IMG/VR virus record: IMGVR_UViG_3300005239_003333 | DNA: 20,525 nucleotides | Source: an uncultured virus (IMG/VR IMGVR_UViG_3300005239_003333) | Lineage: Duplodnaviria; Heunggongvirae; Uroviricota; Caudoviricetes | Reading direction: 5' to 3' (one strand) | Shown: positions 941 through 20,525 of the stretch, piece by piece | Numbering within the stretch: position 1 is the first letter of the stretch | Layout: every line of letters starts with the position of its first letter | The notes under the pieces: generated by a model | Database searches by the model: none | Told to the model about the DNA's origin: nothing | What the model saw: the letters and a program-made list of their open reading frames with translations, nothing else | Translations under genes and position numbers: made by a program

Positions 941-941
941 G

Positions 942-2620: not shown

Positions 2621-2626
2621 ACTATT

Positions 2627-2642
2627 ATTATATTATAGTTCC
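2627..2642 (-). promoter_or_regulatory. early-type promoter motif GGAACT-ATAA-TATAAT
   Basis: exact motif; overlaps the end of the upstream gene (..EEL*); ATG 6 nt downstream. Confidence 0.8.
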
Positions 2643-3089: not shown

Positions 3090-3115
3090 AAATTAATCTC
3101 TTAAGCAGTAAGACT

Positions 3116-3472
3116 CTATACACAATCAGGATACTGCTCGTCGCACCAATCATCCGGGTAACCATTCTCAAAGTCTATCGCGAACTTTGCTTCTGCTATC
3201 TTATCAGCTTCATACTGATCATAGATAATTTCTACCGCATACTTACCTTCTTGTTCTTTTGCATTAGGATAAACCTTTGCAAACAATTCAGGGTCGCCCC
3301 ATTGAAGATCTTGGTAATACATCTCCTTTTCGGAAGTATCATTTTCGTAAATAAATCTACGGATTGCTTTAACATCATGAGTAGTTACAAGATTGATCAT
3401 CTTGGTAAGATTTCCAACGTCTTTTAGCTTATAGCTAATTGACTGAGTAAGTTCGGTAATTAGTTTGTTCAT
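3116..3472 (-). CDS. hypothetical protein (118 aa)
   Basis: ATG 6 nt after promoter motif 3479-3494. Confidence 0.8.
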   Translation of the reverse strand: MNKLITELTQSISYKLKDVGNLTKMINLVTTHDVKAIRRFIYENDTSEKEMYYQDLQWGDPELFAKVYPNAKEQEGKYAVEIIYDQYEADKIAEAKFAIDFENGYPDDWCDEQYPDCV

Positions 3473-3478
3473 ACAATT

Positions 3479-3494
3479 ATTATATTAGAGTTCC
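3479..3494 (-). promoter_or_regulatory. early-type promoter motif GGAACT-CTAA-TATAAT
   Basis: exact motif; ATG 6 nt downstream (3472). Confidence 0.8.
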
Positions 3495-3769
3495 TCTTCT
3501 GGAATATCATCATCCGATTCTAAAGCTCTAAGCAGTTGCTTATCAGTAGTATAGAGTGTAAAGTACCTTCCAAAATGATCGTTAAATATCTTGACGAGGT
3601 CGTATAATCTCCAGACATCATCTGATCTGTAAATTTTTAATCTCATCACTATCATAATCTACTGCTTAGCGGTACTTGTAATATTCCCATCAAAGCAAAT
3701 GCATACATCTGGTCCATCTAGATCGATCTCACGTTGAGATTCTTGAAATGCTTTATGTCTAATGCTCAT
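3485..3769 (-). CDS. hypothetical protein(s): in-frame ORFs 3659-3769 (36 aa) and 3485-3655 (56 aa) separated by one TAG
   Basis: manual translation MSIRHKAF...TAKQ* I MIVMRLKIYRSDDVWRLYDL...DIPEEEL*; ATGA overlap at 3766-3769. Confidence 0.55.
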
Positions 3770-4122
3770 GATAATCCATATACAAGTTCTACCTCAACCT
3801 CATTACAAGGCTGGTCTAATTCTCTCCAACCATACGACTCGCAGAGGAACTGCTTACCTTTCACTTCGACTACATCACCGACCGAGAGCGAATAGTTACC
3901 AGGTTCTCTAAAGTCTTTAGCTAATGCCTGCTCCCAGTTAGAGAGGATCTCTTCCGGGGCGTTAAAGATATGGAACATCTGCTCTGCTCCTTCTTTACCT
4001 TCTTTGAGTTGAACAGGTCCAACGTTCGACGAAGTCTTAAAAACTTCTGTACGAGGACCAGCGTAGTCAGCTCCGTCTCCGAACTGATCTCTGCTTGATG
4101 TGGGTCGTATTATTCTTATCAT
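3766..4122 (-). CDS. YodL-like domain protein
   Basis: E.MFHIFN ... YSLSVGDVV ... FLCESYGW resembles the YodL SLSvsDVV signature; ATG 6 nt after promoter motif. Confidence 0.6.
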   Translation of the reverse strand: MIRIIRPTSSRDQFGDGADYAGPRTEVFKTSSNVGPVQLKEGKEGAEQMFHIFNAPEEILSNWEQALAKDFREPGNYSLSVGDVVEVKGKQFLCESYGWRELDQPCNEVEVELVYGLS

Positions 4123-4128
4123 ACTACA

Positions 4129-4144
4129 ATTATATTACAGTTCC
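4129..4144 (-). promoter_or_regulatory. early-type promoter motif GGAACT-GTAA-TATAAT
   Basis: exact motif; ATG 6 nt downstream (4122). Confidence 0.8.
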
Positions 4145-4314
4145 CGAAACTCTTTGCCCCATCTTGCTCCTCTAGTCCAAAGGTTGAATATCTCATCATT
4201 TGTATATCGGATCTCTTGAGTAGTCTTGCGTATCTCTTTAATATCGACGGGTTTAGAAGTAGATGCACATCCTGAGAGGAGGGTTAAAGCGCAAAGTAAG
4301 AGGGGGATTTTCAT
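4135..4314 (-). CDS. small lipoprotein (59 aa)
   Basis: MKIPLLLCALTLLSGC-ASTSKPV...: signal peptide with LSGC lipobox; ATG 6 nt after promoter motif; missing from ORF track. Confidence 0.75.
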   Translation of the reverse strand: MKIPLLLCALTLLSGCASTSKPVDIKEIRKTTQEIRYTNDEIFNLWTRGARWGKEFREL

Positions 4315-4320
4315 TCTATT

Positions 4321-4336
4321 ATTATACTATAGTTCC
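4321..4336 (-). promoter_or_regulatory. early-type promoter motif GGAACT-ATAG-TATAAT
   Basis: exact motif 4 nt after the tRNA CCA; ATG 6 nt downstream (4314). Confidence 0.8.
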
Positions 4337-4340
4337 AAAA

Positions 4341-4417
4341 TGGTGGGCCCGGTCGGACTTGAACCGACGACCAAACGATTATGAGTCGTTTGCTCTGACC
4401 AACTGAGCTACAGGCCC
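4341..4417 (-). tRNA. tRNA with CAT anticodon, most likely tRNA-Ile2 (lysidine type)
   Basis: GGGCCTG TAGCTCAGTTGGTCAGAGC A AACGA-CTCATAA-TCGTT ... GGTTCAAGTCC ... CGGGCCC ACCA; body resembles bacterial Ile2 rather than fMet; encoded CCA. Confidence 0.9.
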
Positions 4418-4427
4418 AATAATTCTA

Positions 4428-4943
4428 TTAACAAAATCTAGCAAATTCAAACTCAACCTGCTCTAGAGCGTTCTTCAGCTTAATCTCAAAAACACTCTCA
4501 ACTTTACGAGTTGGTCTCCATTCCTCACCAACGTTATCGATCATCGTTCCGTTCTTTACAGTAAAGACGTGACCTGATACTAGGATCAAATAGATACCTT
4601 TACTAAAGTCCTTAATGAAAGACTTAACAGTCTTCTTACGAGAAATATGCTCACCGTGAAGCTTATATACATTCGTAACCTTCTCGGGTGGAAGTACCTC
4701 GAGGTTAAACTCTACCCCATCGATCTCTTGAGTCTTGCCTTCAAGAGAAATTTTCCGACCAGTCGATTCCATATGCTTACAGCCTTTTTTATCTTCACGT
4801 TTGAAAGTCTCTTTCAAGTAGCTATGAGCAGCGTCATAGTCAACATCAAGTGCAGTTGTAAATGCACGTACCGAGCAATCATTCTTCTCAGAACTCTGCT
4901 TATCAGTAGATTTAATAATATCTTTAGCGTTTATGTATTCCAT
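4428..4943 (-). CDS. phage protein with DCxVRA motif, possible Cys-His-Asp peptidase-like fold
   Basis: NDCSVRAF...SGHVFTVKNGTMID pattern recurrent in phage proteins; function inferred only. Confidence 0.6.
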   Translation of the reverse strand: MEYINAKDIIKSTDKQSSEKNDCSVRAFTTALDVDYDAAHSYLKETFKREDKKGCKHMESTGRKISLEGKTQEIDGVEFNLEVLPPEKVTNVYKLHGEHISRKKTVKSFIKDFSKGIYLILVSGHVFTVKNGTMIDNVGEEWRPTRKVESVFEIKLKNALEQVEFEFARFC

Positions 4944-4978
4944 TTTAGTTTTAACAGGTTAATAATTTGTACTCTTTT

Positions 4979-4994
4979 ATTATATCATAGTTCC
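4979..4994 (-). promoter_or_regulatory. early-type promoter motif GGAACT-ATGA-TATAAT
   Basis: exact motif; ~30-nt A-rich leader without SD before ATG 4943. Confidence 0.75.
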
Positions 4995-4999
4995 GGAAA

Positions 5000-5191
5000 C
5001 TAGAAAGAGTGTTGAAGTTGCATGGCTTCGAGAATTGAGTCAATTTGATCACTAGCACGCTTAGTAGTACGGCAGTTATATCGACGAGCGGACCAATCAA
5101 AAGCTTCTACTTCTGAAAGAGTAGTTTCAGATTTAGTAGCCCAGTTAGTAAGAACAAACGTTCCGAAGTTATAATCTAATTCATATTCCAT
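5000..5191 (-). CDS. hypothetical protein (63 aa)
   Basis: ATG 6 nt after promoter motif 5198-5213. Confidence 0.8.
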   Translation of the reverse strand: MEYELDYNFGTFVLTNWATKSETTLSEVEAFDWSARRYNCRTTKRASDQIDSILEAMQLQHSF

Positions 5192-5197
5192 ACAACT

Positions 5198-5213
5198 ATT
5201 ATATTATAGTTCC
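5198..5213 (-). promoter_or_regulatory. early-type promoter motif GGAACT-ATAA-TATAAT
   Basis: exact motif; ATG 6 nt downstream (5191). Confidence 0.8.
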
Positions 5214-5496
5214 TCATCCGGAATGTCTTTGTCAAAAGGATGCTTATCGTCCTCATAAACTTCATACTTTGAATCATCCAAGCTAACAGCGTTTGATATG
5301 CTATTTCAAAATGCTTAGTTAAGTCTGGACCAAATGTACCTGTCCAATTTTTAAAAGGAGTGTGTGGAAGCTTTTCTCTATTTCGGAAATAACGTATAAA
5401 CTCGGGATGGTCTAAGGTTGATTGAAGGTTAAATATCATTCCCTTCTTCTCAGTCTCCATTATAACGAGATCCTTATCAATATCCGGTATATCCAT
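5204..5496 (-). CDS. hypothetical protein, probable 1-nt indel near 5292-5294 (true C-terminus ...NAVSLDDSKYEVYEDDKHPFDKDIPDEEL)
   Basis: adding one A to CAAACG joins the frames and gives a stop inside the promoter motif, as in neighbouring genes. Confidence 0.6.
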
Positions 5497-5545
5497 TGTT
5501 TAGTAACGTAAATGAATGTGTAACTATATTAAGAATTGCTTTACT

Positions 5546-6106
5546 TTACATATAATCTGAGATATCATTTACAGCCTCGACATGCCTTTGCTGAGCTATT
5601 TGAATTGCTTTTGCTTCAGCTGAATTACTTTCATATCTTTTCTCAGGCGGCGGACAACAAACATCTTCATAGTTTAAAGTACAAGATGAGAGCGACGTTG
5701 AATTATATTCGGGGCGGTTTAGATCTACAGAACCAATTCCATGATTACGTTCAACGTTTACAGCATAAGCAGTATTATTTCCATTGTTAATATCATTGAT
5801 TAGATATCGCTTACCTGGCCCTAGCCCCATTACTAAATGATCCCAAAATATACCAGCGTCAGTTAATAGCTCTTCGGTAACCTTCCTCATAGATTCTTTA
5901 CGACCTGTGGTTAAGATAATTCGATATCCATGTGTCTCCCATTCCCATAGCTTATCTAGAGTACCTGGTAATACCTCTAAAGCGTTATGACCTTTAGGAA
6001 GATCTTTAAAACCTTCCGTACCATCAGGGAACTTTACTAGAGTACCATCAATGTCGCAGAAAATTGTTTTTGTTGCGTTTTTAGCGTTGTTGTTTAGATC
6101 TTTCAT
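5546..6106 (-). CDS. HAD-superfamily phosphatase (capless, phage-type)
   Basis: motif I FCDIDGT, motif II ILTTGR, downstream LVMG...YLIND. Confidence 0.8.
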   Translation of the reverse strand: MKDLNNNAKNATKTIFCDIDGTLVKFPDGTEGFKDLPKGHNALEVLPGTLDKLWEWETHGYRIILTTGRKESMRKVTEELLTDAGIFWDHLVMGLGPGKRYLINDINNGNNTAYAVNVERNHGIGSVDLNRPEYNSTSLSSCTLNYEDVCCPPPEKRYESNSAEAKAIQIAQQRHVEAVNDISDYM

Positions 6107-6113
6107 ACCCCTT

Positions 6114-6129
6114 ATTATAAGACAGTTCC
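6114..6129 (-). promoter_or_regulatory. early-type promoter motif GGAACT-GTCT-TATAAT
   Basis: exact motif; ATG 7 nt downstream (6106). Confidence 0.8.
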
Positions 6130-6338
6130 TAACTGGTCGTCTTTGCGAACCCCATCAACATCAATACTAAAAGCAACCCGCCACCGATATACAATAATAT
6201 TGATTGCCAAAAGTCTTTATTTTTCCAGAAGGTCATTGAACCATAACCAGGGGAGCATACGACAGGTTTACTTTTATTCTGCTTATCGACCATTGTAATA
6301 TGCTCGCCTTTGACTCCGTTATATACTTTTTTTCTCAT
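6129..6338 (-). CDS. small membrane protein (C-terminal TM helix); likely start MRKKVYNG
   Basis: ILLYIGGGLLLVLMLMGF hydrophobic stretch; ATGA overlap with an upstream ORF fragment ending at 6335. Confidence 0.65.
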   Translation of the reverse strand: MRKKVYNGVKGEHITMVDKQNKSKPVVCSPGYGSMTFWKNKDFWQSILLYIGGGLLLVLMLMGFAKTTS

Positions 6339-6469
6339 AAATCCTCCAAATCTTTTACCCATTCATTTACCTCAGTAACTACAATACTAACTAACGCGCA
6401 GATATGTATAAGGTAACACTTGTAAAATTTGACATTACAATATTCATTANNNNNNNNNNNNNNNNNNNN

Positions 6470-9400
6470 ATAGTTACTACTGTACTTGAACTACCTGCAA
6501 ATAGTGAAGTAGGTGGTTTTTTTGGAAATAGAATTGCATCCGGTTTGTCGGCCGGCAGCTATACTGTTAAATTATTAAATCTTGTCACTAGTGTCACCTA
6601 CGAGCAGGTTATAGAAGTTAAAGCATCTACAGGCCGCGTTTTGAGCAATAACTACACGGTAGTAGCTGGGGCCTTAGAAGGAAACATTGAAACAAGTAAT
6701 TTCCCATCAAAAAAGGTAATGGTATACCCGACAACAAGAGATAAAGCATATAAGGCTTTCTACGGAGATGTTGCTGTTATCGAGATTCTCGCGCTTAATA
6801 TGGTAGGCTATGATTATTCATCGTATTTTAACCAACGCGGTGTCGCCGGCGGGGCCACTTCATCTCCGCGAAATAGTTCTTGTTTAGTGCTAGCGAAACT
6901 CTTAGCCGGTGGATCTGGCTACAGGCCAAACGCCTTCTACCCTGTATTTTGGGAAGAGAATAGAACCGCTGGTATAGCTGGCCAGTTCGAGGCCGATGAG
7001 CGACTCCCGAGGAACGCCGGCTTCAGCGGTCCAGACTATAGTATACCGTATGAGCCATTCAGAGGCGTAGGTCGTCGTGCACCTATTCAGCAAATAGTAC
7101 CAGTATTTGTAGCTCTTACTGATAGTAATGGTTCGGTATATGATATTGTAGAGTACGATGAACAAAAGTATGGTTACCGGCTATATAATGACAGGTCTAG
7201 CGGTGCTGGAATGCATTGGTTACACTTTCATAGTACATATACAAGAGATCTGTTTATAGGGTTTAGCTACGGCGGCTATTGGTCTGTGGGTGGCGATCGG
7301 AATTTTTCGTACTCTTCGTCCGGTATTGCCGCTCCATATGCCCCGCAGTACGTTACGTACTTTGACTCCGCTACCGGTTCGCACGTAACAGATAGTGCCT
7401 GGGTCAGTTTAAATATCCGAAATGACGCTGGTCAAATTAGCCCGGTAACAAAAACTTTAATTGATCCTTTTAGTGCCACGGGTGGCGCCGATATAGTAGC
7501 TGTTTTAGCTAATATTGGTAATGAAAATATGAGCCCATTCGATGGAGTAAAGGTGAGTGAATATACCGATGCTCCTATAACATTTCATACTCTTGATCCA
7601 GAGGAAGAATGGTTTCAGCTGCCGAATAATGCTTCATTTGGCGGGTACATTTACCCTTATACGGACACCAGCTGGCGCGCCGGTATTGGAATTTATCCTT
7701 TATCAGCTGATGAAAATGGGCTACCTGTTATTATCAAAAACGGTAAGGGAACTACCCGGGCTACTAGCCGCACGAGTAGCTTGCTTCCAATCGACGGGCT
7801 AACCAATATGTACGACGAGTTCGACAATCCAGTAGTGTACGATGCAGTAGCTAGCTTTACGCCCTACTATCAGAAAGGTATAAATGTAAACTTAGGATAT
7901 GATCGTATTCAAAATGACCCACCAAAAACGGGGTGGCCTATGAATCCGAGTCAGTATGATAGTTCTGGCTCCATGACTATGACGTATTATAAGGCACCAT
8001 ATTCTGGCAGTACATTTGCATGGTTTTTTCCGAACGCAGCGCCGTTGTACGACACTAGTGATATGATTACAAATGCCGATGGATCACTAGTAGCGCCATG
8101 GCGACAAAGCTTAGGTCCTGGTGGGACAGGTGTGGGTTCTCCAGTCTACGGGTTAGTTAACTGGCGCGCGATACATTCGGTTGGCATGGCTACACCCGGA
8201 ACGAGTTTCGGTTATTACAACGAGGGTGCCGCGCTTACATACGATACCGTACCGCTTAGAGTACGGTTTGGTGGAAACTTTTCTAAAAAATCTATTGAAT
8301 TTGTAAATTATACTGGTAATGGAGGACCCTTCGGACAGCCTGCAGGGTTTATACCTAACACCTTAGAGGGTGATTCTGAAGTGGAGCCTGTTACTATGGT
8401 TAATTTTAATGATACGTCAGTAAAAGGGGTGACAGCTATTGCGCAATCTCCTTTAAAGTTATTAAGAGGTTCAGATTTTACTCAAACAGCTAATGCAGCT
8501 AACGGTATAGATACTAAATTAGATTTTACCCCTAATAATTTAGAGAGTGTGTATGGTGAAGATATAGCATTTACTGATGTTAATGAGTATTGCGTTCTAG
8601 AAATAGGAGCTGTTATACCTTACGGTTGTATGGAGGGTATATCATCTAAGTTAAATAAGCATCCAGGGGATCCGCTCAACCCTACGTGTTTATCTGTAGC
8701 CGGTACCGGTGATGCTAATTTTTCACTGTATACATTTTATATAAGATTAAAAGCCAAGGGGACTGGTTACCCTCCTAATTCAAAAATACCAGTTTATATA
8801 AGAAGAGGAAAAGACCATCTTCCATATTATAACCAAGGGTCGTTGCCAGCTAATCCCGGGCCTACTTTAGAGATTGGCCAGGTTAGTAATATTACCGTCG
8901 ACGGTCGTGGTTCAGGCGGGCCGTGTGTCTGTATGATACACACAGACGATGATGGTGTAACAACCCATATTACAGAATATGTCGATCCTAAGAGTAAATG
9001 CAGATCAGAGGGCGCTAGTTCGCTATATCCTAGTAAATCTTTAACCGCCGGTTTAGATCCAAATGTTCAAGATTTTACAGCAGATGTTAATGATGGTGTA
9101 AATTATGATGGTGCCGAAAGTCCTCCTATGACTCACCCTGATGGTAGCGGTCAATGGTATAATGAAAGACCATCACAGTACAGGAGATTAATGAACCTTG
9201 GTGAAGTGAGCGATTCTTTGTATGGCTACGCTAAGGATTATATCGCACCCATTGATTTAGTTGACGACACAGATAGCGGTAAAGTAGGGTGGGGAAATGC
9301 ATTTTCTACTGATATAGGACAGGCTATTACAAAAGCTGCCAACTTCGGGACAATAGCAAGATATAAAAACGCTTCAACTTTTGAAAAAGACCGCCAGTAT

Positions 9401-9727
9401 ATCAATAAGGACCTGTTACCCGCTCTATCGGGTGTGTTTCCGTTCGCAACAACCCAAGGATACTACATCCAAAATAAACAGCATTATCAAGGAGAACCGA
9501 ATTCGGTTTTTATACCATTCCTTGGATATGCATATTGGGTGCCACCCGATATTCAACAAGGCCCGCTGCCATGGCACCAGCGCATAGGTAAGAATGAAAA
9601 TTTTCAACTTAATACATATCCCAACAGCCTTTACATGACAGGTACGTATCAGTTTGGAGGATATTATACCTACACGGACAATCCCTCACGCGATCAATTT
9701 CCGATGAAATTCTTATGGCAAAGTTTT
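6470..9727 (+). CDS. giant virion/tail-associated protein, paralogue 1 (truncated at both ends by N-gaps)
   Basis: >1080 open codons; G(S/T)GY motifs as in T4-like structural proteins; collinear similarity to 13432-17250. Confidence 0.75.
8715..8808 (+). repeat. near-identical block shared with 15817-15910
   Basis: 94 nt with one mismatch by eye. Confidence 0.9.
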
Positions 9728-9747
9728 NNNNNNNNNNNNNNNNNNNN

Positions 9748-9833
9748 ATAACTCCTTTATAAGGAACGGTATTACGGGCAGGGGGTTCATCTAAACCAAG
9801 TATCTTTCTAACAGTAGGATCGGTAATTTCCAT
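9748..9833 (-). CDS. 5' fragment of hypothetical protein (MEITDPTVRKILGLDEPPARNTVPYKGV...), runs into gap
   Basis: ATG 6 nt after promoter motif 9840-9855. Confidence 0.65.
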
Positions 9834-9839
9834 ACACCT

Positions 9840-9855
9840 ATTATATGATAGTTCC
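9840..9855 (-). promoter_or_regulatory. early-type promoter motif GGAACT-ATCA-TATAAT
   Basis: exact motif; ATG 6 nt downstream (9833). Confidence 0.8.
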
Positions 9856-9858
9856 TAG

Positions 9859-9866
9859 TATAAATA
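9859..9866 (+). promoter_or_regulatory. T4-like late promoter TATAAATA
   Basis: exact T4 gp55 consensus 7 nt before ATG 9874. Confidence 0.7.
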
Positions 9867-9873
9867 ATATTAT

Positions 9874-10725
9874 ATGGCAAAACCAGACTTAACTCGTAGC
9901 GGCTTTAGAGGGCCACGATCTCCTAATGACTTAGCTCGTATGAAAGCTAGGATGAAAGACTTTAATAAAGTTGCGAGAGTTGCTCAAGGAGGCAGCGGGT
10001 CTAATGTAACTTATAGTAGTGGAAGTAGTGAGAGTAGTGGAAGCAGTGGAAGTAGCGGTACTCCTTCCCCGGAATATAATGTTGCAACAGCTGGTAATGT
10101 TACTAGTATTAATGAAGGAAGCGCGTTAACAATTAACGTTACAACTACTAATGTATCAGATGCGACTCCGCTTTATTGGACAATTCTTGGTAATACAGGA
10201 GATTTCAGCACAACAAGTGATAGCTTTAATATTAATAGTAATGCAGGCTCGTTTACCGTAACACCAACTGCTGATTCAACTACTGAGGGCACTACTGAAA
10301 CCTTCCAAGTTCAAATCAGAACTGGAAGTACTGGCGGTACTGTAGTAGCTACAACTAATGCAATTACTATCAATGACACGAGCCAAACACCTGCATTTAG
10401 TCCGGACTATACCTTATCAGTTAGTTACGGCGGTACCGGAATATATACAGTAACAGGATCTGATCGGGATGGTTCAGTAAGTGGCAGTAATCCATCTCTT
10501 GCATTTAATGCAGGTGATAAAGTAAGATTTAGTAACTCAGATAGTAGCGCGCATCCATTATATATTAAAACAGTGCAAGAAACAGGTAGCACTTATAACC
10601 TAGCATCAGGAGTTTCCGGAGCAAGTACAGCAACAGTCGATTGGACAATACCAGCTGGTAGCGATACTTATTACTACCAATGCTCAGTGCATAATGCAAT
10701 GTATGGCACAATTACTGTAACATAG
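9874..10725 (+). CDS. virion structural protein with Calx-beta/Ig-like domain and C-terminal cupredoxin-like domain
   Basis: SINEG..LTINVTTTNV...LYWTI module; HPLYI ... YYYQCSVHNAMYGTITV (H, C-x2-H-x2-M). Confidence 0.7.
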   Translation: MAKPDLTRSGFRGPRSPNDLARMKARMKDFNKVARVAQGGSGSNVTYSSGSSESSGSSGSSGTPSPEYNVATAGNVTSINEGSALTINVTTTNVSDATPLYWTILGNTGDFSTTSDSFNINSNAGSFTVTPTADSTTEGTTETFQVQIRTGSTGGTVVATTNAITINDTSQTPAFSPDYTLSVSYGGTGIYTVTGSDRDGSVSGSNPSLAFNAGDKVRFSNSDSSAHPLYIKTVQETGSTYNLASGVSGASTATVDWTIPAGSDTYYYQCSVHNAMYGTITVT

Positions 10726-10727
10726 AT

Positions 10728-11993
10728 ATGACCCAGATACCTACATTATTTGATTTAAACCGGTTACAGGCTAACAACTACACTAGGAAACGTTTTAAAA
10801 TAAAACCGGCTGCATCGTCGCCCGCGCCACCTCCAACAAGAACTATACGTATACTATATGGGCGGTATAACACACCAGAGGCGAAAGTATTTGATGCAAC
10901 TATTCAAAGCGGTACAATGGTCAGGTCGGCCCAAGTAGGGTCTACTATTCAAGGAGCAAATAATCCTTTTGATGGAGGATCAACGTATGCAGTTGATGAT
11001 AAGATGGGGTATTCGGTCAGCCTATCAAAGGATGGAAATATAGCAGCTATTAGCTCGCCGGAAGCGTATGATACAGCTGCCCCGGGTAGTATAGGCGGTG
11101 ATCCACCTACAATGACTGGTAATGTAAAGGTATATGAATATAATGGCACTAGTTGGTCGCAGAAAGGCTCTACGTTATACGCGGGGGAAACTAGCTACGA
11201 AGCCTTCGTAGGCACTAGTGTAGATTTATCAGACGATGGATTAAAATTATTGGTTGAATCTGCAGGATATAATAGTGGCGACGAAGGTTATTCACAATCA
11301 CGATCGTCATATTATGTATATGAATCTGGTGATTGGGTTTTAAAAAGTAGACCTAGTCAAGTTTTCAGATACGGTTACCGAGCTCAAATGTCGAATGATG
11401 GTAATGTAATAGTTGCAACTAACCCAGCCGAAGCCTTTCCTTCTCCTGGGCCTAAAGCATCGATATGGGAGTACGATTCAACAGGTGATTCATGGAGTAA
11501 AAGAGAAGATATTGCTCCTCTCAGCCTTAATGGAGGCGGGGGATTAGATATTAATAATGATGGTTCTATAATCTGTGTATCTCAAGGCTATAATTCAAAT
11601 AATGTAAAGGTATTTAAATGGAACGGATCTTCATATGACTTAATGGGCGCGCAATTCGGATCTCTTCAACATATGAAGTGTAGGATGAATGATGCTGGAG
11701 ATATTGTAGTTGTTTCAGGTACTAACGGTCTTCGCGTCTATAGATGGAATGGTACTACTTGGGTCCAAGATAGTACGACTCTAGGGTCCGGTGATGTAAA
11801 TACAGCTTTTGAGATAAACCCCACAGGTGATATTGTAGTAACCGGTACACCGGCGGTATTCCAATATTATAACGGTGATTGGACTAATACCGGTAGTATA
11901 GATACTGGAGGACAATATCCAATAACTAACAATACCGGATACGCGTATCCATCGTTTGGTGGTCAGTTTACTATAGGACTTAGCGAGATTTAA
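10728..11993 (+). CDS. beta-propeller (FG-GAP-like repeat) protein, putative adhesin/structural
   Basis: repeats GYSVSLSKDGN, GTSVDLSDDG, AQMSNDGN, LDINNDGS, RMNDAGD, EINPTGD with V.VY...G.SW segments. Confidence 0.75.
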   Translation: MTQIPTLFDLNRLQANNYTRKRFKIKPAASSPAPPPTRTIRILYGRYNTPEAKVFDATIQSGTMVRSAQVGSTIQGANNPFDGGSTYAVDDKMGYSVSLSKDGNIAAISSPEAYDTAAPGSIGGDPPTMTGNVKVYEYNGTSWSQKGSTLYAGETSYEAFVGTSVDLSDDGLKLLVESAGYNSGDEGYSQSRSSYYVYESGDWVLKSRPSQVFRYGYRAQMSNDGNVIVATNPAEAFPSPGPKASIWEYDSTGDSWSKREDIAPLSLNGGGGLDINNDGSIICVSQGYNSNNVKVFKWNGSSYDLMGAQFGSLQHMKCRMNDAGDIVVVSGTNGLRVYRWNGTTWVQDSTTLGSGDVNTAFEINPTGDIVVTGTPAVFQYYNGDWTNTGSIDTGGQYPITNNTGYAYPSFGGQFTIGLSEI

Positions 11994-12002
11994 TAATTAA
12001 AA

Positions 12003-12079
12003 TGGTACTCCGAGCAGGACTCGAACCTGCGACCCACGGTTTAGAAAACCGTTGCTCTATCCAACTGAGCTATCGGAGC
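12003..12079 (-). tRNA. tRNA-Arg(TCT)
   Basis: GCTCCGA TAGCTCAGTTGGATAGAGC A ACGGT-TTTCTAA-ACCGT ... GGTTCGAGTCC ... TCGGAGT ACCA. Confidence 0.93.
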
Positions 12080-12087
12080 ATCTGGAT

Positions 12088-12103
12088 ATTATAATATGGT
12101 TCC
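12088..12103 (-). promoter_or_regulatory. early-type promoter motif variant GGAACC-ATAT-TATAAT
   Basis: 8 nt upstream of the tRNA-Arg 5' end. Confidence 0.7.
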
Positions 12104-12107
12104 TATT

Positions 12108-12873
12108 CTAATTACAGAAAAAATGGCACCCAGTTTTTTCGAGAATATCTTCAAGTCCTTTCTCGTCTTGTAGAATAATATCTCCAGTTGGTATATAGTT
12201 AATACCATTATGCTCTTTTACTAAATATATACCTTCATCGTCAATACCAGAACCAATACCTTCGAATGAAATATTATATTTTATCTTTAATATAATCTAC
12301 TTTATTATACTCCTCTTTAAAGTTATCTAACTTAGAACCTCTTAAAAATCCGTTGTATAAGGCACTTACAACTTTTTCTTCTATTTTCTCTATGTCAATA
12401 TGTTCACCGGCCTCTATTTTTAAACTAGTAGCTAACGAATGGTAATTTGACGGGAAAGTTGTTAAACTAGTATTTACATTTAATCCAATACCGACAATAT
12501 AATGCGGTACAGGCAATCCAAGCCCTCTCGAAACCATGCCAGAAATCTTTTTACCGTTACAGTATATGTCATTAGGCCATTTAACTTGGAAGAGTAATTT
12601 AGGAAATATTTTTTGTAATGCATTGCAAACTTCTAAACCATACCAAACAGACGCGCTTTTCATTTCCGCCCATTCAATACCGGGTAAATTTATACATAAA
12701 TGTATATTATCACTGCACGTCGCGTGCCATTTTTTATTAAATCTACCGGATGCAGCGGTCATCTGCTTGGAAATAACTGCAAAAGGTGGTTCAATATTAT
12801 CACTAGCTTGTAAATTTACAGCCTTACTCATTACACTATCCACGACATTAAATCTATATATTGGTATGTCCAT
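12108..12873 (-). CDS. birA: BirA-like biotin-protein ligase family protein (no HTH), probable 1-nt indel near 12278-12281
   Basis: VKWPNDIY, GKKISG, VGIGLNVN, GR..KKW; BPL_C-like tail FEGIGSGIDDEG..LV...TGDI continues in the adjacent frame to stop at 12108. Confidence 0.8.
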
Positions 12874-12880
12874 ATTAAAG

Positions 12881-12888
12881 TATAAATA
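12881..12888 (+). promoter_or_regulatory. T4-like late promoter TATAAATA
   Basis: exact consensus 15 nt before ATG 12904. Confidence 0.6.
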
Positions 12889-12903
12889 TATATATAGTTA
12901 ATC

Positions 12904-13088
12904 ATGTCCGTAAATAAAACAAGTTTAAATTTAAATAATGCATATCTTAAGCAAAACGGAGTGATGCACTCGCCACAACTTATCAAATTAGGTAATAATA
13001 TAGTATGGCCTAGGACGAAAGTTGTAGAATTTAAAACATTACAATCAGGCGGCGAGTTAAATTTTACCGTCGGCGCTACAACAAAATA
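12904..13088 (+). CDS. 5' fragment of a tail-associated protein (runs into gap)
   Basis: N-terminal NAY...IKLGNNIVWP motif shared with the 13432 protein (NAY...MMLGPSLVWP). Confidence 0.65.
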
Positions 13089-13108
13089 NNNNNNNNNNNN
13101 NNNNNNNN

Positions 13109-13435
13109 ATTTTAGAGTACTGGTCTAGATTTAATGATGATGAAAAACCTATTGTAATTACATTAGAGCGGGACTTAGACAAAGTTAAAGAAAGTTATAA
13201 GCGCCGGTTTAAACGACAGCATCCTATGTCAATTGATGACTCGATCAGTGAATCTATGGCTGATGTCGCATTTGAAAAGCATTACAAACATCACTTAAGT
13301 GTGTTGGAGCAAATAAAACCAGATTTTACCCTTTCAGTTGATGCTGATGATAAGCAAGCCAGATTAGATGAACTCGCGACCACTCTCGGCGTATCATTAT
13401 CTACCGACTGGGCGCCTATCAACAGCACGTCATGA
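13109..13435 (+). CDS. C-terminal fragment of a sulfotransferase-like (P-loop) protein
   Basis: frame is open from the gap: ILEYWSRF...PIVITLERDLDKVKESYKRRF (Ixx xRD-x5-S, 3'-PB-like) ... LDELATTLGV. Confidence 0.5.
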   Translation: MLEYWSRFNDDEKPIVITLERDLDKVKESYKRRFKRQHPMSIDDSISESMADVAFEKHYKHHLSVLEQIKPDFTLSVDADDKQARLDELATTLGVSLSTDWAPINSTS

Positions 13436-16400
13436 TATCTAATGTAACATTACAAAACGCCTATAAGGGCGCTAACGGGATTACCCGTATGATGTTAGGA
13501 CCATCTCTAGTCTGGCCAAAAGCTCCGACTTTAATGTTTGATATCACAAACGCTCTTTTACCTTTTGATATAAGTATCGACGCTCCTGCGCAATTTTTAA
13601 TATTTCAAGAAGTTGGCGGAGCCGCTTATTTGTTTAATGCGGGGAGAAGCACTTCTAATAAAACGCTCAGTACAGAAGCTCGTGGTACTGAAAGGCCATA
13701 TAAAATGGTACATACACAGGTTGATCCTAAGGTTTCATATAATATACCTATACAAGCTAAGTTCGTTGGTTCTCTATCTGTTCAAATAATAGCAAGGTCC
13801 TCCAGAGTCTCTAGAGCAAATCGATACACATCATATACAGATCGAAATAATGGATCTATATCAGCTTATATTAAGAATGATTATAATATTAGTATTTCTT
13901 TTCGTATTGAAGTGCGTAATGCCTCGGGTACTATAGTAGCTAACACAGTACAAAATGTTTCTCCAGGCGAACATGACATAGGTAATTCTACATATATTTC
14001 AAGCGGTCGCACTATAAAAACTGCTTTACCGGCTGGTCGTTATAATATTAAGGTATATAATCTTACAACTGGTATAATCAATGAGACTACTGTCGAATGC
14101 CAATCTGTTACACGTGGCTGGAAAGTAAACCGTTATACATTATTATCAGGCGCTTTAGATGGTCTCGAGAATCTTACTACAACCGGTGCTTTTTCAAGGA
14201 GAGTATTAGTATACCCGTCAACAAGAAATAAAGCATATAAGGCTTTTTACGGCGATGTTGCTGTTGTCGAGGTTCTTGCGTATAATATAAAGGGATATGA
14301 CTATAAAGCTTTTCAAAACTTTCTTGGAAACAGCGTCTTACAAACCGCCAGTACCGGGGAAGGTGCTTGTATTCTGCTTGCAAAATTAATAGATGGCGGT
14401 TCTGGGTACAGAGCAAACGCTTTCTACCCTATATTTTGGGAAGAGCCTCCTTCAGGTAACTCATTTGAAGCAACCGGTGAAATGGTTCCGTTTTTTGTAG
14501 CTCTTACTGATAGTAATGGATCGGTATATGATATTGTAGAGTATGATGAACGGAAGTATGGTTACCGAGAATATAATGATAGAACTAGCGGTGCAGGTAT
14601 GCATTGGTTACACTTTCATAGTACATACTACCAGGTAGGTGGTTACTATTCTGTTTGGTTAGAAAGCTGGGCACCACAATACGTTACATACCTCGACCCC
14701 GCTACCGGGCCACATTTAACAGATTCTGCATGGGTCGCTAAAAATATTCGAGCTGACGCCGGTCAAATGAATGATTCAACCGGGACATTAATCGATCCTT
14801 TTTCTGCAGATGGTGGTGCAGATATAGTAGCTATTTTTGGTAATATTTCAAGCCAGCAATACGGCTATACATCCTATGTCCCGTGGAATCCATTTAACAC
14901 CAGCACAGCTGAATATATTGACGCGCCGCGGACACTACATACTTTAGACCCAGAGGAGGCTTGGTTTGACCTTCCAACTCATAATATAAGTAATAATATT
15001 GTACTCGATGAGAATGGGTTACCAATTATTGTAAGATCTCTTAACTCCAGTAATGGTGATTTTGATAACGAGAGGTTTAACTATGGTAATAAAGCTGGTA
15101 GAGGCACGTATATAGGCACAAACTATACTATTATCGACCCCCCAACGGTTGGATATAGTAGTGGATCAGGCTATTGGTATTACCCGAATGGCGGCCCATA
15201 CTACGATACAAGTGATCTTGTAAATGGTATAGCCCCATGGCGTCAAAGCTTAGGTGCTGACGGCACTGATGTTGGTTCACCGGTTTATAAAAAATATAAT
15301 ATTGGAGCGAGAAACGCGGTGATGGGTCTATTTGCTCGTCCCGGCTGGGATTATAGCGAACCAACACTTAGACAGCAGACCGGAGGAAATTTCTCTAAAA
15401 AATCTATTGAATTTGTAAATTACACCGGCAATGGTGCACCGGCTGTACAGCCCGGCGGGTTCATATCGAATACTTTAGACGGTGACCCGGATGTAACACC
15501 CACTACGAAGATTAATTTTAAAGATACGTTAATAAGCGGAATAACAGCTACAGCGCAACCTTCCTTAAACATAATTGGAGGTGCAGATTTTACTCAAACA
15601 GTTAACGCAGATAAGGAGACGATAGATAGTAAGATAGAAATTATACCTAATAATTTGGATAGCGTGTATGATGAAGATATGGCATTTACCGATATTAACG
15701 AATATTGCGTTCTAGAAATAGGAGCTGCTATACCGGCGTTTGTATGACCGGTATAGGTAATCAACTAAGGTTGCACCCTGGCTCAAGTTCGACGTGTTTG
15801 TCTGTCGCAACTTCAACTAATTTTTCACTGTATACATTTTATATAAGATTAAAAGCCAAGGGGACTGGTTACCCTCCTAACTCAAAAATACCAGTTTATA
15901 TAAGAAGAGGGGCAGCTTGGGTTCAAGGATATAATACAAGCTTATTACCATCTAATCCCGGTCCTACTTTAGAGATTGGACAGGTTGATAACATTACTGT
16001 TAATGGTCGTGGTTCAGGAGGGCCGTGCGTATGCATAATACATACAGACGTTAATGGTATTACAACGCATATTACAGAATATGTCGACCCGGCAAGTAAG
16101 TGTAGAACTGAAGAGCTGCTGGATGGGGATTGGAATAAACCATCAAATCGCGACTATCAAACATATACTTTTAGAGCAGATGTTAATGATGGTGCGAATT
16201 ATGATGGTTCACAAAGTCCTCCTATGACTCACCCTAATGGTAGTGGTGAATGGTATAATGAAAGACCTTCACAATATAGAAGATTAATGAATTTAGGTGA
16301 AGTGAGTAATTCTATATATGGCTATGCTAAGGATTATATCGCACCTATTGATTTAGTGGATCAAACGGATGCTGGTAAAGCTAAATGGACTGGATCGGCT

Positions 16401-17250
16401 TCTAGCGATAGGGTTTTAAAAGCTCACTGCTTCGGTACAATAGCGAGATATATGAATGCCACAACGTGGGAAAAAGATAATAAATCGATAGTTTACAGCA
16501 CTTTTCCTACTCTATCTGCGTTGGACAAGGTCACTATGAATTATATCTATGGAGCGACGCCATGGCAGAAGGTTATAAGTAAGAAGGATGCACAACAACC
16601 TATAATACCTTCCAGCTGGATGAACCATCAAATTACGGACTCTAGAAAATTCTCATGGCAAAGTTTTACAGCCTGGCAGGCTTATAGAGATGTATATAGA
16701 ACTAAAGGCGTTACTTATAATAGATCGAGCAATTTAACAGACTTGGCGCCGAAAGGGCAACTCTTATACGGTGGTACTGGTGCCGCTGCTGTTCATGATC
16801 TACCGGCGTATAATAAATACGATGGAAACTTCTTATCAAATCGCCCACCCGCAGCTGATGGTACGAGTTCGAACTATTATTTTAGACCAGGTACTAATCA
16901 AAATTTAAAAGACGACTATTTGTTGTTCGATAGACACGGATTCACAAACGAAGGCTTTGCCGCTAGTAGTAAGATCCCATACCAGACGCCAGATATGGGA
17001 CCCGATTATATAGTTTGTAGAATAGCAACACCTAATGGTTATGTACCATGGTACAATCCATCATCGACTAGTTGGTTTTATCAGTCGGTAAAATTACGAC
17101 CCATTACTAACGCTCTATGGGTAAATTCTTATGCTGCTATTCAATCTTTAAATATAAGTACACCTGGGTTACAGGGGCAAGTACTTGATGTAGTAGAGGA
17201 TCATTGCTGGCTCATTAAAGGCCATCGCAATTGGGTATCGCTAGGAGATG
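13432..17250 (+). CDS. giant virion/tail-associated protein, paralogue 2 (single gene split by 1-nt indel near 15733; 3' end in gap)
   Basis: ORFs 13432..15747 and 15705..17250 together align collinearly with paralogue 1 (IPYGCMEG vs IP[G]VCMTG). Confidence 0.8.
15817..15910 (+). repeat. near-identical block shared with 8715-8808
   Basis: 94 nt with one mismatch by eye. Confidence 0.9.
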
Positions 17251-17593
17251 NNNNNNNNNNNNNNNNNNNNNNNNNNNNNNNNNNNNNNNNNNNNNNNNNN
17301 NNNNNNNNNNNNNNNNNNNNNNNNNNNNNNNNNNNNNNNNNNNNNNNNNNNNNNNNNNNNNNNNNNNNNNNNNNNNNNNNNNNNNNNNNNNNNNNNNNNN
17401 NNNNNNNNNNNNNNNNNNNNNNNNNNNNNNNNNNNNNNNNNNNNNNNNNNNNNNNNNNNNNNNNNNNNNNNNNNNNNNNNTAAAACACGAAGTAGACGCC
17501 ATATGCTACATTAAACGGTGCGACCGCGATAGTTGTATAATTAACGCGAATATAATTTTCTTTTAGATTTTCTTTCATTTTTGTATGTTTAGT

Positions 17594-17601
17594 TATAAAT
17601 A
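17594..17601 (+). promoter_or_regulatory. T4-like late promoter TATAAATA
   Basis: exact consensus 6 nt before ATG 17608. Confidence 0.7.
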
Positions 17602-17607
17602 ATTTAT

Positions 17608-17862
17608 ATGAGTGCTTTAACAGTAAATTTAACAAAATCAGTAGATTACACCGCAACACCGGCCGAGATAGTCACACTACCAAAGGGCGATATTGTAATA
17701 AACCGTATTGTCGATATTCCTGGTAATAAAAAAGTCATAGTTTTTGTTGATGGTGTTGGTCGTTTAGAACTAGCAGCTCTTAGTGATGCTAATTACGATT
17801 CACCTGCTGAATGGACTAATGCAGATGTCGTAGCAGCAGTAAAAGCTATACTAACTAGCTAG
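17608..17862 (+). CDS. small late (likely structural/tail accessory) protein, 84 aa
   Basis: clean ORF behind TATAAATA box. Confidence 0.75.
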   Translation: MSALTVNLTKSVDYTATPAEIVTLPKGDIVINRIVDIPGNKKVIVFVDGVGRLELAALSDANYDSPAEWTNADVVAAVKAILTS

Positions 17863-18016
17863 ACAGTTTTCGATTCTTTTTAATAGCTTCGTCAATCTTC
17901 TGCGTTACCTTAATACCTACTACCTCGTTATAAACAAGAGGTCCTCGAGATCTACCAGTTGTTTTACCGATATGACTTTTTAATTGGGTTCTTCCTTCTA
18001 GATTTTTCTTACTCAT
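17855..18016 (-). CDS. hypothetical basic protein (53 aa, MSKKNLEGRTQLKSHIGK...)
   Basis: manual translation; ATGA overlap with upstream ORF. Confidence 0.6.
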   Translation of the reverse strand: MSKKNLEGRTQLKSHIGKTTGRSRGPLVYNEVVGIKVTQKIDEAIKKNRKLSS

Positions 18017-18237
18017 AATACTTGCCCTCCTTCCGGGACTTCGTTTAGTAACGTTACAATATCATTAGGGTTAACATAAGTCATACTCTGACCGCCATTA
18101 CCTTCTGCCACTAGATACTCTGTACGTCCGTTTTTTTCTATAATTTGTTGAATATGACCACTAGCGTGAAACTCTGTCTCGCTACCAGCATATTTAACTC
18201 TGTATGTGATATAATCACCTTCTTTTTGTTGTCTCAT
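18013..18237 (-). CDS. hypothetical protein (74 aa, possibly SH3-like beta barrel)
   Basis: ORF; TATAAT 8 nt upstream; KEGDYI.Y...GHI.QI...YLV pattern. Confidence 0.7.
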   Translation of the reverse strand: MRQQKEGDYITYRVKYAGSETEFHASGHIQQIIEKNGRTEYLVAEGNGGQSMTYVNPNDIVTLLNEVPEGGQVL

Positions 18238-18255
18238 ATATATATATTATAATAT

Positions 18256-18426
18256 CTATTTGCCTGTTTTGCTAGCCATTTTTTTTGAATAGCTTAATAT
18301 TTCTTCCTTAAAACTTTTAAGGTCTAACGCCAGTTGGTCATTACCACCATCTTCGGCTCTATTAATAAACTTATCTATTTTAAGTATAAACTGTGAAAAT
18401 AAAAACTCTGTCATTTCATCTTTCAT
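18256..18426 (-). CDS. hypothetical protein (likely start MKDEMTEFLF..., 56 aa)
   Basis: ORF track start lies upstream of a hairpin; ATG at 18426 follows the hairpin. Confidence 0.6.
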   Translation of the reverse strand: MKDEMTEFLFSQFILKIDKFINRAEDGGNDQLALDLKSFKEEILSYSKKMASKTGK

Positions 18427-18437
18427 AATAATTGAGA

Positions 18438-18465
18438 AGCTGGGGACACGTTTGCATCCCCAGCT
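18438..18465 (-). terminator. intergenic hairpin (terminator/processing-like)
   Basis: AGCTGGGGATGC-AAAC-GTGTCCCCAGCT on minus strand, 12 bp with two G-U pairs; weak U tract. Confidence 0.5.
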
Positions 18466-18473
18466 GAAACACT

Positions 18474-18668
18474 TCAATTAGAGGCAGCTAAATGATCCAT
18501 CAAGATATAAGATATCTCAACTTCAAAATCTTTCTGCGTCTTAACACTTTCAGTACTTATGAATACTGGATCGAGACCGCTAAGGTCACCAACCGTATCA
18601 TAAGCCTTAATAGCCTCACCCTCATTTTGAATAAAGGTATAGCCTTGAGTTACTTCTTTGAATTGCAT
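18474..18668 (-). CDS. hypothetical protein (64 aa)
   Basis: ORF; ATAAATA box 5 nt upstream. Confidence 0.7.
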   Translation of the reverse strand: MQFKEVTQGYTFIQNEGEAIKAYDTVGDLSGLDPVFISTESVKTQKDFEVEISYILMDHLAASN

Positions 18669-18690
18669 AATACTATTTATCTCAATTATG

Positions 18691-19692
18691 TTACTGATTT
18701 ACTAAAGAGAGAAGTTTTGTACCTCGCTCAATTGTTCGTTCTGCAAGCTCTCCGTTATTAACAACAGTCCAGAAGCTTTGCTTATTCATACGACCTAACC
18801 CGAATTCTGACGAGACGTATTGGTTAAGACGGTTCTTACCCTTACCACGAGTACTATTATGTGAGTAGTAGTCAGTTACTGCAGAGAACGCATCTGCGTA
18901 GTTCTCTCCTCGGTTACCAGCACCTCGCTTAAACAATGTATTCAAGCTATCTACCGTATTTAAACAGCGTGTACTAAGTCCTTCCTTAGGGTTATTACGC
19001 ATCAAGAATCCAGTAAACAATGACTGGGCTTTCTTTTCAGTAATTCGTTTCTTGAGAAGCTTATCAAACTTCTGACGGAAATCTTCCTGAGTACCGAGAA
19101 AGTCCTCTACTACATTAGATAGATCAGCAAGTTTAAGCTCGATATCACCGCGGTGAACTGCACTACCTACCATTGCTGATTTATTATTTAAATTATATGT
19201 AAACGTATTATCGCAGACAGTACATACATTCGTATTATTGATCCAGAGCTTAGATGTCTGATCATGAGCATTACCGAAGTTAAGATAGTCCTCAAACTCC
19301 CGATCACCAACTTTATACTTACTCTTACCATCTAGGCTTACAGTAACAAAAACTTTACCTCTTCCGCAGACCGAACCAACAGATTCAATTTTAGCTTTAG
19401 GTAGTCTTTGCATTGCATCACTAACTAAGTCCAAAAACTTCTCGTTAGTAATTTCCTTATACGAAGGAGACATTGGTTTACCGATAATCTTATCATCGTC
19501 AGTACCTACTAGGATACCATAACCTGTCTCTTGTTCATTACCATCTACATCGACGTATGTAAGCGGCTTACGCTCTACGTCCCATTTAGTCAAGACGTTA
19601 TCACTAACGTCGATTTTATCAACGACATCGGTTAAACCGTGCCATGCTTGGCTCAAACCTACTTGAGCATCGTTTTCTTTTATGTTATGCAT
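18691..19692 (-). CDS. DUF932 (TIGR03299-like) phage/plasmid protein
   Basis: AWHGL...WDV...Y..ITNE.F...GSV.G...VF...NAHD...VCDNT...AFSAVTDYYSH pattern. Confidence 0.8.
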   Translation of the reverse strand: MHNIKENDAQVGLSQAWHGLTDVVDKIDVSDNVLTKWDVERKPLTYVDVDGNEQETGYGILVGTDDDKIIGKPMSPSYKEITNEKFLDLVSDAMQRLPKAKIESVGSVCGRGKVFVTVSLDGKSKYKVGDREFEDYLNFGNAHDQTSKLWINNTNVCTVCDNTFTYNLNNKSAMVGSAVHRGDIELKLADLSNVVEDFLGTQEDFRQKFDKLLKKRITEKKAQSLFTGFLMRNNPKEGLSTRCLNTVDSLNTLFKRGAGNRGENYADAFSAVTDYYSHNSTRGKGKNRLNQYVSSEFGLGRMNKQSFWTVVNNGELAERTIERGTKLLSLVNQ

Positions 19693-19726
19693 TTTTATAC
19701 ATTGTTATTATTAAACTCTTATATAT

Positions 19727-19742
19727 ATTATATAGTAGTTCC
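19727..19742 (-). promoter_or_regulatory. early-type promoter motif GGAACT-ACTA-TATAAT
   Basis: exact motif; A-rich leader without SD before ATG 19692. Confidence 0.75.
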
Positions 19743-19821
19743 AATCGGTTTTCAAGGAGTTATTCCTTTAAAGTTAAAAGAGTAGTTTAAAGACTTACTC
19801 AGGTCATGAACCATATAAAAT

Positions 19822-20525
19822 TTAGCTAGCTACTTTTAAGAATAATTTCATACTATCAGCTGCATTAAGCAGACCGTTTACGTTACCTCCGTTATCGAGA
19901 TTTTTATGCTTGTAAATAGCACTCTTACCTTTACCGAACTTATCTATCTTACCGTTAAGTACTAACTCTCTAAGCAAGTTATAAGCGCGGTTATATTCTA
20001 CACCCAGCTCAGTCATTACTCTATCAGCAGTAAGATGAGGAGGCTCAGTAATATTCAATATCGCCTCTAGATCTTTAGCCTTACGACCCTTCTTACTAGG
20101 AGCTTTATTTTCACTCTCTTCTACTTTTACAGGAGCTGAAAAGTCATAACCTTTAGCACCGATGAACAAAGTTAACTCATTAAGAGCGCCGAAACGATTC
20201 TTAGTAAAAAAGATCTTACGAGCATCATCATCAATATCACCATCGATTACAATATTCATATTAACATCGACAGTATGAGGTACAATAGTACCACCCTTAA
20301 GCTTACCGTCTTTAGTAAGATGCATAATAAAGAATACAGTACACTCTTTATCTTTAGCAGCTCTAGTAAGCTTACTTACAGCATACTTTTCTAGAGCTCT
20401 ACTATTCATCTTCTTCTTAGAAGTTAGAGCCTGAAAGCTATCTATCACAAGAGCATCAAGATCGTCCATTGCATCCGCTAGGTCATCATATCAGTCATAT
20501 TAGCGACTGCTACCTCTTAACCCCA
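19822..20525 (-). CDS. RadA/Sms-like RecA-family ATPase (C-terminal part; continues beyond window) with winged-helix tail
   Basis: Walker B LVIDSFQ, HLTKDG..KG...HTVDV, KNRFG signature. Confidence 0.8.

Follow-up and report, generated by a model that had tools for sequence, protein, structure and literature searches.

Why should a virus carry, close together, two very large genes whose products keep a common framework and differ from each other in length and sequence at one site after another? The question is raised by a 20,525-nucleotide (nt) stretch of DNA from an uncultured virus (IMG/VR record IMGVR_UViG_3300005239_003333), referred to below in its full length as the window, in which a first-pass annotation made from the sequence had pointed to two giant paralogues at 6470-9727 (copy 1) and 13432-17250 (copy 2) and had proposed that they encode receptor-binding virion proteins diversified by the exchange of loops. 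The window comes from an uncultured marine virus of ~188 kb, most likely a large phage; its open reading frame (ORF) of 771 amino acids (aa) is on record from a 187,955-bp contig, and the small genes are closely packed, with two tRNAs and replication genes of phage type among them. We favour, at a probability of roughly 55%, the reading that the giants are putative virion appendages for host recognition.

Two giant paralogues share a framework interrupted by length-variable segments

The collinear alignment of the two copies was borne out by BLASTP, in which the translation of 6470-9727 matched that of 13432-15744 with 45% identity over 712 columns (21% gaps, E 5e-177) and that of 15705-17249 with 66% identity over 270 columns (E 5e-113). 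A pairwise MAFFT alignment placed 891 residues of the two copies opposite each other, 519 of them (58%) identical, and contained 28 indel runs, 14 of which were at least 5 aa long; copy 1 was the longer in 13 of these 14. All conserved blocks named in the first-pass annotation were recovered in the BLASTP and family alignments, its three examples of inserts were all present, and the alternation of a conserved framework with length-variable segments held across the whole family, both in indel counts and in the family alignment, where invariant blocks alternate with gappy segments, a feature of gp38-type adhesins that is shared here by analogy only. The inserts had also been described as rich in Tyr, Trp, Gly and Ser. 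This enrichment was real but modest, these residues making up 34.7% of 216 inserted and 25.7% of 1782 aligned residues (Fisher p 0.006) and, family-wide, 29.8% in inserts against 24.7%. At the DNA level only the conserved blocks of the two copies aligned, with 71-89% identity. The ratio of nonsynonymous to synonymous divergence (dN/dS), a check suggested at the outset, was ~0.33 overall (dS ~1.0, dN 0.35) and 0.12-0.3 in the framework blocks. The copies are old, and both are under purifying selection.

Among the conserved positions of the framework, an HxxH motif was invariant in all six full-length relatives (block at 7200-7240 in copy 1 and 14590-14630 in copy 2), and the framework block at 8900-8990 contained an invariant CxC followed by a His. 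Such conserved His and Cys residues could form a metal site, a suggestion that no family match supports.

Since four runs of N, at 6450-6469, 9728-9747 and 13089-13108 (20 N each) and at 17251-17480 (230 N), split the window, it is a scaffold of five pieces. Copy 1 (6470-9727, plus strand, 1086 codons) has N runs at both ends, which makes it an isolated 3258-bp fragment from the interior of a giant gene. It is of the type of P0001, a 1429-aa relative to which it is 88% identical and whose residues 170-1240 it spans; measured against P0001 it lacks ~170 aa N-terminally and ~190 aa C-terminally, and no continuation of the gene was found beyond its two N runs. Copy 2, also on the plus strand, starts with 771 codons from an ATG (13432-15744, stop codon at 15745-15747), which include the N-terminal domain of the family, and continues in the -1 frame at 15741-17250, where the 230-N run cuts it off with ~32 aa of the C end missing.

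The frame of copy 2 changes between 15733 and 15741, and homology is back in the -1 frame by 15741. Contigs of four public marine runs (X1 to X4) were compared with 13 kb of the window, those of X3 matching with 0-1 differences each. One X3 contig covered 15492-15753 with 263 letters for 262 positions, one gap (position not shown) and no other difference, so that the simplest reading of the frame break is that the window lacks one base there. In all four runs an extra T followed positions 17535, 17555 and 17560, which means that single bases are omitted elsewhere in the assembly too; it seems to drop them in runs of T. The frame break is a probable sequencing error or strain variant. Programmed frameshifting in copy 2 was considered and set aside, given the extra letter in the X3 contig and the single-base omissions elsewhere.

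A third member of the family, overlooked in the first-pass annotation, begins at 12904 on the plus strand. Its first 61 codons (12904-13088) carry the N-terminal signature of the family, share 48% identity with the start of P0018 and are cut short by an N run. Full-length relatives measure 1,312-1,476 aa, and shorter paralogues with only the N-terminal domain in common are P0018 (625 aa) and the product of positions 972-2495 in the related locus L003 (507 aa).

Both copies belong to one genome

A pair of this kind might also be produced if a scaffolder merged the alleles of two co-occurring strains, in which case no genome would hold both copies. Such a merger would agree with the isolation of copy 1 between N runs of unsized gaps, with a scaffold position of copy 1 that disagrees with the synteny of relatives, and with the existence elsewhere of a relative 88% identical to copy 1. 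It is contradicted by single contigs in which the 3' part of copy 1 is linked with the small ORF that precedes copy 2, by the presence of two copies per genome in both of the independent related viruses with enough sequence, and by a dS of ~1 between the copies, far above strain-level divergence. A merger of strains is thereby largely refuted, and we regard it as very unlikely.

One joining contig, record 12 of X2 (2407 nt), covers 9083-9714 and then, after a further 933 nt, 13109-13950, with 11 and 3 other letters in the two stretches, respectively; within these 933 nt, the matches are confined to conserved C-terminal blocks of copy 2. The complete chain of joints (9714>16655, 16708>16971, 17043>17204 and 17250>13109) was found in two of the four runs (X1 and X2, from one study), and its first joint, 9714>16655, was also present in X4, from a second study. 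The length of 933 nt fits: completing the C end of copy 1 takes ~580 nt, and the ~350 nt left equal the spacing seen in the related locus L002. Two full-length copies stood side by side in all three long related loci, in tandem in L002 and in divergent orientation in L003 and L004. Because L003 and L004 are 99.8% identical, they count as one virus, giving two independent viruses in total; L001 (2.1 kb) is too short to tell copy number and was left out of this count. The joining contigs and the paired copies of related viruses uphold the original view that these are paralogues in one genome and not merged strains, and we consider it highly probable that they are true tandem paralogues with mosaic evolution.

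In the window, the two full-size tandem genes are separated by a small conserved ORF, of which the 3' part (13109-13431, plus strand, 107 codons) is 90% identical in L002 and 66% identical in L003/L004. It has no family match and lies directly upstream of one giant gene in every related locus.

The same comparisons bear on the order of the pieces. Window positions 4677-6260 match L002 1-1585, positions 9778-9880 match L002 1971-2073, and the tRNA-Arg gene (TCT; 12003-12079, minus strand) matches L002 4709-4794, immediately ahead of the first giant gene of L002, where it marks the left edge of the giant pair; a public contig likewise has it directly upstream of the first giant gene, and record 10 of X2 joins a tRNA-Arg-like end to ~600 nt ahead of 6470. 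On the minus strand at 9748-9833 are the first 28 codons of a small gene (start at 9833) that is cut off by the N run at 9747. In L002 a counterpart of ~70 aa lies at the same place, which supports the piece 9748-13088 adjoining the left flank. The scaffold pieces 6470-9727 and 9748-13088 are therefore probably swapped, and the true order is likely to be left flank, 9748-13088, copy 1, small ORF and copy 2. Since the linking contigs come from relatives that are 98-99.6% identical, a strain difference in piece order is possible. At 90% likeness, 9840-12009 and 12444-12877 were left almost bare by the contigs of X1 and X2, an absence that is no evidence in itself. For assembly practice, the locus is a worked example of how divergent tandem paralogues can break and mis-order a scaffold.

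The copies diversify by recombination

Mosaic alleles agreed with the initial proposal that the giants diversify by recombination. Up to residue 995, the relative P0002 belongs to the P0001/copy 1 type; from there on it is nearly identical to P0003. Informative sites favoured P0001 over P0003 by 150:62 to the left of residue 995, and P0003 over P0001 by 123:1 to the right of it (Fisher p 3.5e-43). In copy 1, P0001-like runs alternate with P0002-like ones, and one copy each of L002 and L003 (L002_A and L003_B) carries one short foreign patch. From these patterns, exchange involves small patches as well as a C-terminal block of ~430 aa, so that the further proposal of loop exchange rather than whole C-terminal swaps has to be given up: P0002 shows just such a swap.

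Hypervariable segments might also be written by a diversity-generating retroelement (DGR). Beyond the presence of such segments, nothing in the data pointed to one: reverse transcriptase was absent from the ORFs of the window scanned (16 with Pfam, 25 with PHROGs), and no template/variable repeat pair was found in the window, whose repeats consist only of paralogous blocks and a promoter-like motif. The segments moreover differ in length, and retrohoming mutagenesis by DGRs produces no length differences. We consider this origin extremely unlikely.

Recombination between the copies themselves is suggested by a 94-nt tract at 8715-8808 in copy 1, which is 99% identical to 15817-15910 in copy 2 (both plus strand) in DNA that is otherwise 71-89% alike. 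Within its 66-nt core, the two copies differ at one site in the window and at two sites in L002, against 3-11 differing sites between genomes. The tract is a candidate gene-conversion tract or recombination anchor, and its pattern fits conversion between the tandem copies. We postulate that variation would arise by homologous recombination at the conserved blocks, which would serve as anchors, both between alleles in the population and between paralogues of one genome, and that the exchanged units would be short patches as well as large C-terminal parts.

The giants form an orphan family with a predicted Ig-like domain

Relatives of the giants were rare. Only 13 of 1,835,955,588 representatives were found at E <= 0.001, and a word-indexed search returned 7 family clusters; the flanking DUF932 gene, by contrast, had 288 homologue clusters, on contigs of up to ~220 kb. 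Neither Pfam (E <= 0.01) nor PHROGs (E <= 0.001) offered a family for copy 1, copy 2, P0001, P0005, P0014 or P0018, and a PDB profile search with the giants gave no match at E <= 1. No relative was detected among INPHARED phages (tblastn), in IMG/VR with a single query or with the alignment, or in GTDB species genomes, and the best score in the ESM Atlas (0.75) was not informative. The giants are an orphan protein family, new to the libraries searched.

Structure prediction resolved a small part of the protein. An AlphaFold model of copy 1 (1086 aa, 18 alignment rows) was unusable, with a mean predicted local distance difference test (pLDDT) score of 34.6. A model of residues 1-410 of copy 2 reached a mean pLDDT of 59.7, and its sole confident domain, residues 112-240 (pLDDT 76-94), is predicted to be an immunoglobulin (Ig)-like sandwich. 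In a VIA search this sandwich matched 4kty_A best (Z 8.4, root-mean-square deviation 2.4, 93 aligned residues), and 8gul_A with Z 7.5; the wide search found nothing beyond generic Ig-like sandwiches, at Z values (8.4 at most) that are common for sandwiches. As modelled, residues 112-240 thus superpose on solved Ig/FnIII-like domains at the level of fold. Foldseek searches of PDB and BFVD with these poor models gave no match at E <= 0.001. The four variable segments between residues 169 and 377 of the 410-aa model (184-190, 243-251, 287-311 and 338-351) all had pLDDT under 50, which may simply reflect their variability. A possible internal duplication in copy 1, residues ~80-235 against ~680-842, was seen with hhalign (probability 40%, E 3e-4, 143 columns) and BLASTP (E 0.01); for two core domains related by duplication this is suggestive only.

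The giants lie in a hypervariable island between conserved flanks

The left piece of the window (1-6449) consists of small, tightly packed genes on the minus strand, together with a tRNA-Met and a HAD/PNK-phosphatase-like gene, and the right piece encodes a DUF932 protein and the C-terminal part of a DnaB-like helicase. Both flanks are conserved. The left flank (4677-6260, with the HAD/PNK-phosphatase-like gene and small genes) has 85% nt identity to L002, and the right flank (17488-20249, with the DUF932 and helicase genes) 92%, the proteins of the latter being 94-99.5% identical to those of related loci; by protein, identity was 85% for HAD, 94-98% for DUF932 and 97-99.5% for the helicase. 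Between genomes the giants are 37-64% identical, and at the nt level they match in patches only (68-79% identity). A divergent region is therefore enclosed by flanks conserved at 85-92% (nt) and 85-99.5% (protein), the pattern of a hypervariable island. At least five sequence types of giants were present, and type was independent of position: the upstream copy of L002 is 81% identical to the downstream copy of L003. Among cultured phages, the helicase and one small protein had distant matches only (24-32% identity), and the DUF932 neighbour had no match in the phage collection.

Three passengers accompany the giants in the window. A 283-aa protein (9874-10725, plus strand) matches, with its C-terminal part, PHROGs of tail fibres and of baseplate wedge tail-fibre connectors (E 1e-15 to 7e-12 for tail-fibre PHROGs) as well as cyanomyovirus proteins, and has a weak plastocyanin-like Pfam match. 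Next to it, a 421-aa protein (10728-11993, plus strand) has a weak FG-GAP-like match and is 76% identical to the product of a gene at the start of L004. The third passenger, a biotin/lipoate protein ligase family protein (12274-12873, minus strand; Pfam E 1e-9), is an unusual auxiliary gene to find within a viral island. Passengers vary by genome: a GT2 glycosyltransferase (3127-3975) stands beside the giants in L002, and a GH10-family glycoside hydrolase (2517-3647, E 5e-46) beside those in L003. With its island pattern and a neighbour that matches tail-fibre PHROGs, the context fits the receptor-binding role first proposed.

The giants might instead decorate the virion surface, or be capsid fibres that adhere to particles or mucus, without being the primary receptor-binding protein; the Ig-like sandwich of copy 2, and neighbours with Ig-like or cupredoxin-like domains that also occur in cyanomyoviruses, would suit this reading. 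The island pattern, however, fits host recognition, and decoration proteins are usually neither the most variable and recombining genes of a virus nor present as several divergent paralogues. A decorative function is in our judgement distinctly unlikely.

The contents of the flanks and the passengers bear on a further explanation, by which the giants would be non-virion proteins acting in or on the infected cell, whether carbohydrate-active, surface-modifying, superinfection-excluding or counter-defensive, and would be hypervariable through a variable host target other than a receptor. Homology to structural proteins was not found, the ligase, GT2 and GH10 passengers are non-structural, replication and early genes lie in the flanks, and the conserved His/Cys motifs, including the invariant HxxH, might mark a metal site, all of which suit this explanation. 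Against it, the size of the giants, a composition rich in beta strand and in Tyr/Gly/Ser, and the Ig-like domain are all in keeping with appendages, an N-terminal domain found on long and short paralogues alike suits a shared docking site, and proteins with tail-fibre-like domains adjoin; known counter-defence genes, besides, are mostly small. A non-virion function is possible, if on the whole somewhat unlikely.

A putative role in host recognition

We favour host recognition because of the island pattern, the neighbours, the N-terminal domain common to long and short paralogues, and the composition of the proteins. The island contains two full-size genes of this orphan family, whose proteins are rich in beta strand and in Tyr/Gly/Ser, and the beginning of a third. 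In the model that we propose, each protein has a conserved N-terminal domain, which also occurs on the shorter paralogues, one or more Ig-like sandwiches, a pair of core domains that may be duplicates of each other, and a conserved C end; the framework is broken at no fewer than 14 sites by segments differing in length and sequence. The shared ends would dock the protein, presumably on the virion, and fold it, and the variable segments would form the surface that contacts the receptor.

Several observations weigh against this role. Pfam and PHROGs scans found no capsid, tail or baseplate genes in the window or the related loci, the conserved flanks being replication and early-type genes. Neither by sequence nor by fold could the giants be tied to a known tail fibre, tailspike or adhesin in searches of Pfam, PHROGs, PDB profiles and, by Foldseek, PDB and BFVD, and the tail-fibre PHROG matches of the neighbour rest on a single domain that is common to hypothetical proteins of cyanomyoviruses. 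As to the genetics of the locus, the linking contigs are close relatives (98-99.6% identical) and not provably the window's own strain; because the sequences are metagenome assemblies, a chimeric contig could mimic recombination, in P0002 above all; and the signal of conversion within a genome comes from few sites.

A bolder form of the host-recognition model would make the locus a combinatorial recognition scaffold, in which a framework of ~1,400 aa offers at least 14 independently exchangeable sites, two or three divergent tandem paralogues act both as working proteins and as a resident store of cassettes, and segments are shuffled by gene conversion at anchor blocks conserved at the nt level, such as the 94-nt tract. 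The logic of such a system would be nearer to that of the antigenic-variation loci of cellular pathogens than to ordinary tail-fibre mosaicism; we regard this extension as doubtful. If a widespread lineage of marine viruses does recognise its hosts through the giants, they offer a new orphan scaffold for studying how specificity is rewritten by segment exchange, and they could be used as a marker for virus-host micro-diversity in ocean metagenomes.

Other features of the window

A 42-nt motif recurs seven times in the window (1017-1058, 2606-2647, 3458-3499, 4108-4149, 4300-4341, 5177-5218 and 9819-9860), with related copies at 368-401 and 19720-19753. Each of the seven copies extends over the start codon of a small gene on the minus strand; in the direction of that gene, the motif shows a GGAAC box followed by a TATAAT-rich stretch that stops a few bases short of the ATG. 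It resembles a virus-specific promoter for near-leaderless transcripts. The tRNA-Met gene (CAT) of the left piece lies at 4341-4417 on the minus strand.

Comparison with known systems

The closest parallel in design is the gp38 adhesin of T2/T6-type phages, which, as described by Trojet et al. (2011; PMC3157838), has an N-terminal attachment part followed by a specificity part, with conserved motifs forming a core that separates hypervariable segments; these segments are easily interchanged determinants of specificity. The giants resemble gp38 in conserved blocks that alternate with variable segments and in mosaic alleles. They differ in that gp38 is small and has four hypervariable segments and glycine-rich motifs, whereas the giants are 1,300-1,480 aa long and have at least 14 variable sites. 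They also occur as two to three neighbouring paralogues, and by Pfam and PHROGs they do not belong to the gp38 sequence family.

At the level of the locus, the giants recall metaviromic islands, in which, according to Mizuno et al. (2014; PMC3909814), host-recognition genes and their recognition parts vary among near-identical co-occurring genomes of marine phages. The likeness lies in flanks conserved at 85-99.5% around giants that are 37-64% identical. The family of giants, in contrast, is not among the known host-recognition genes, and the likeness comes from a comparison of loci and not from read recruitment.

T4-type long-tail-fibre loci are plastic, with a conserved proximal part, mosaic distal parts and recombination at conserved motifs. 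Long tail fibre genes are counted among the most variable genes by Trojet et al. (PMC3157838). As in these loci, a short and highly conserved stretch, here the 94-nt tract, could serve as a crossover point. Unlike them, the giants showed no homology to such fibres, have different neighbours and are known from sequence, not as trimeric fibres.

In Mtd of Bordetella phage BPP-1, the variable protein of a DGR, a stable scaffold displays variable receptor-binding residues. DGRs alter a fixed set of residues, leave the length unchanged and depend on a reverse transcriptase together with a template repeat. The giants, in contrast, have segments that vary in length, and neither a reverse transcriptase nor a template repeat was found in the window. 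The design principle of the giants is thus already known from T-even adhesins and metaviromic islands, and what is new to the libraries searched is the protein family itself.

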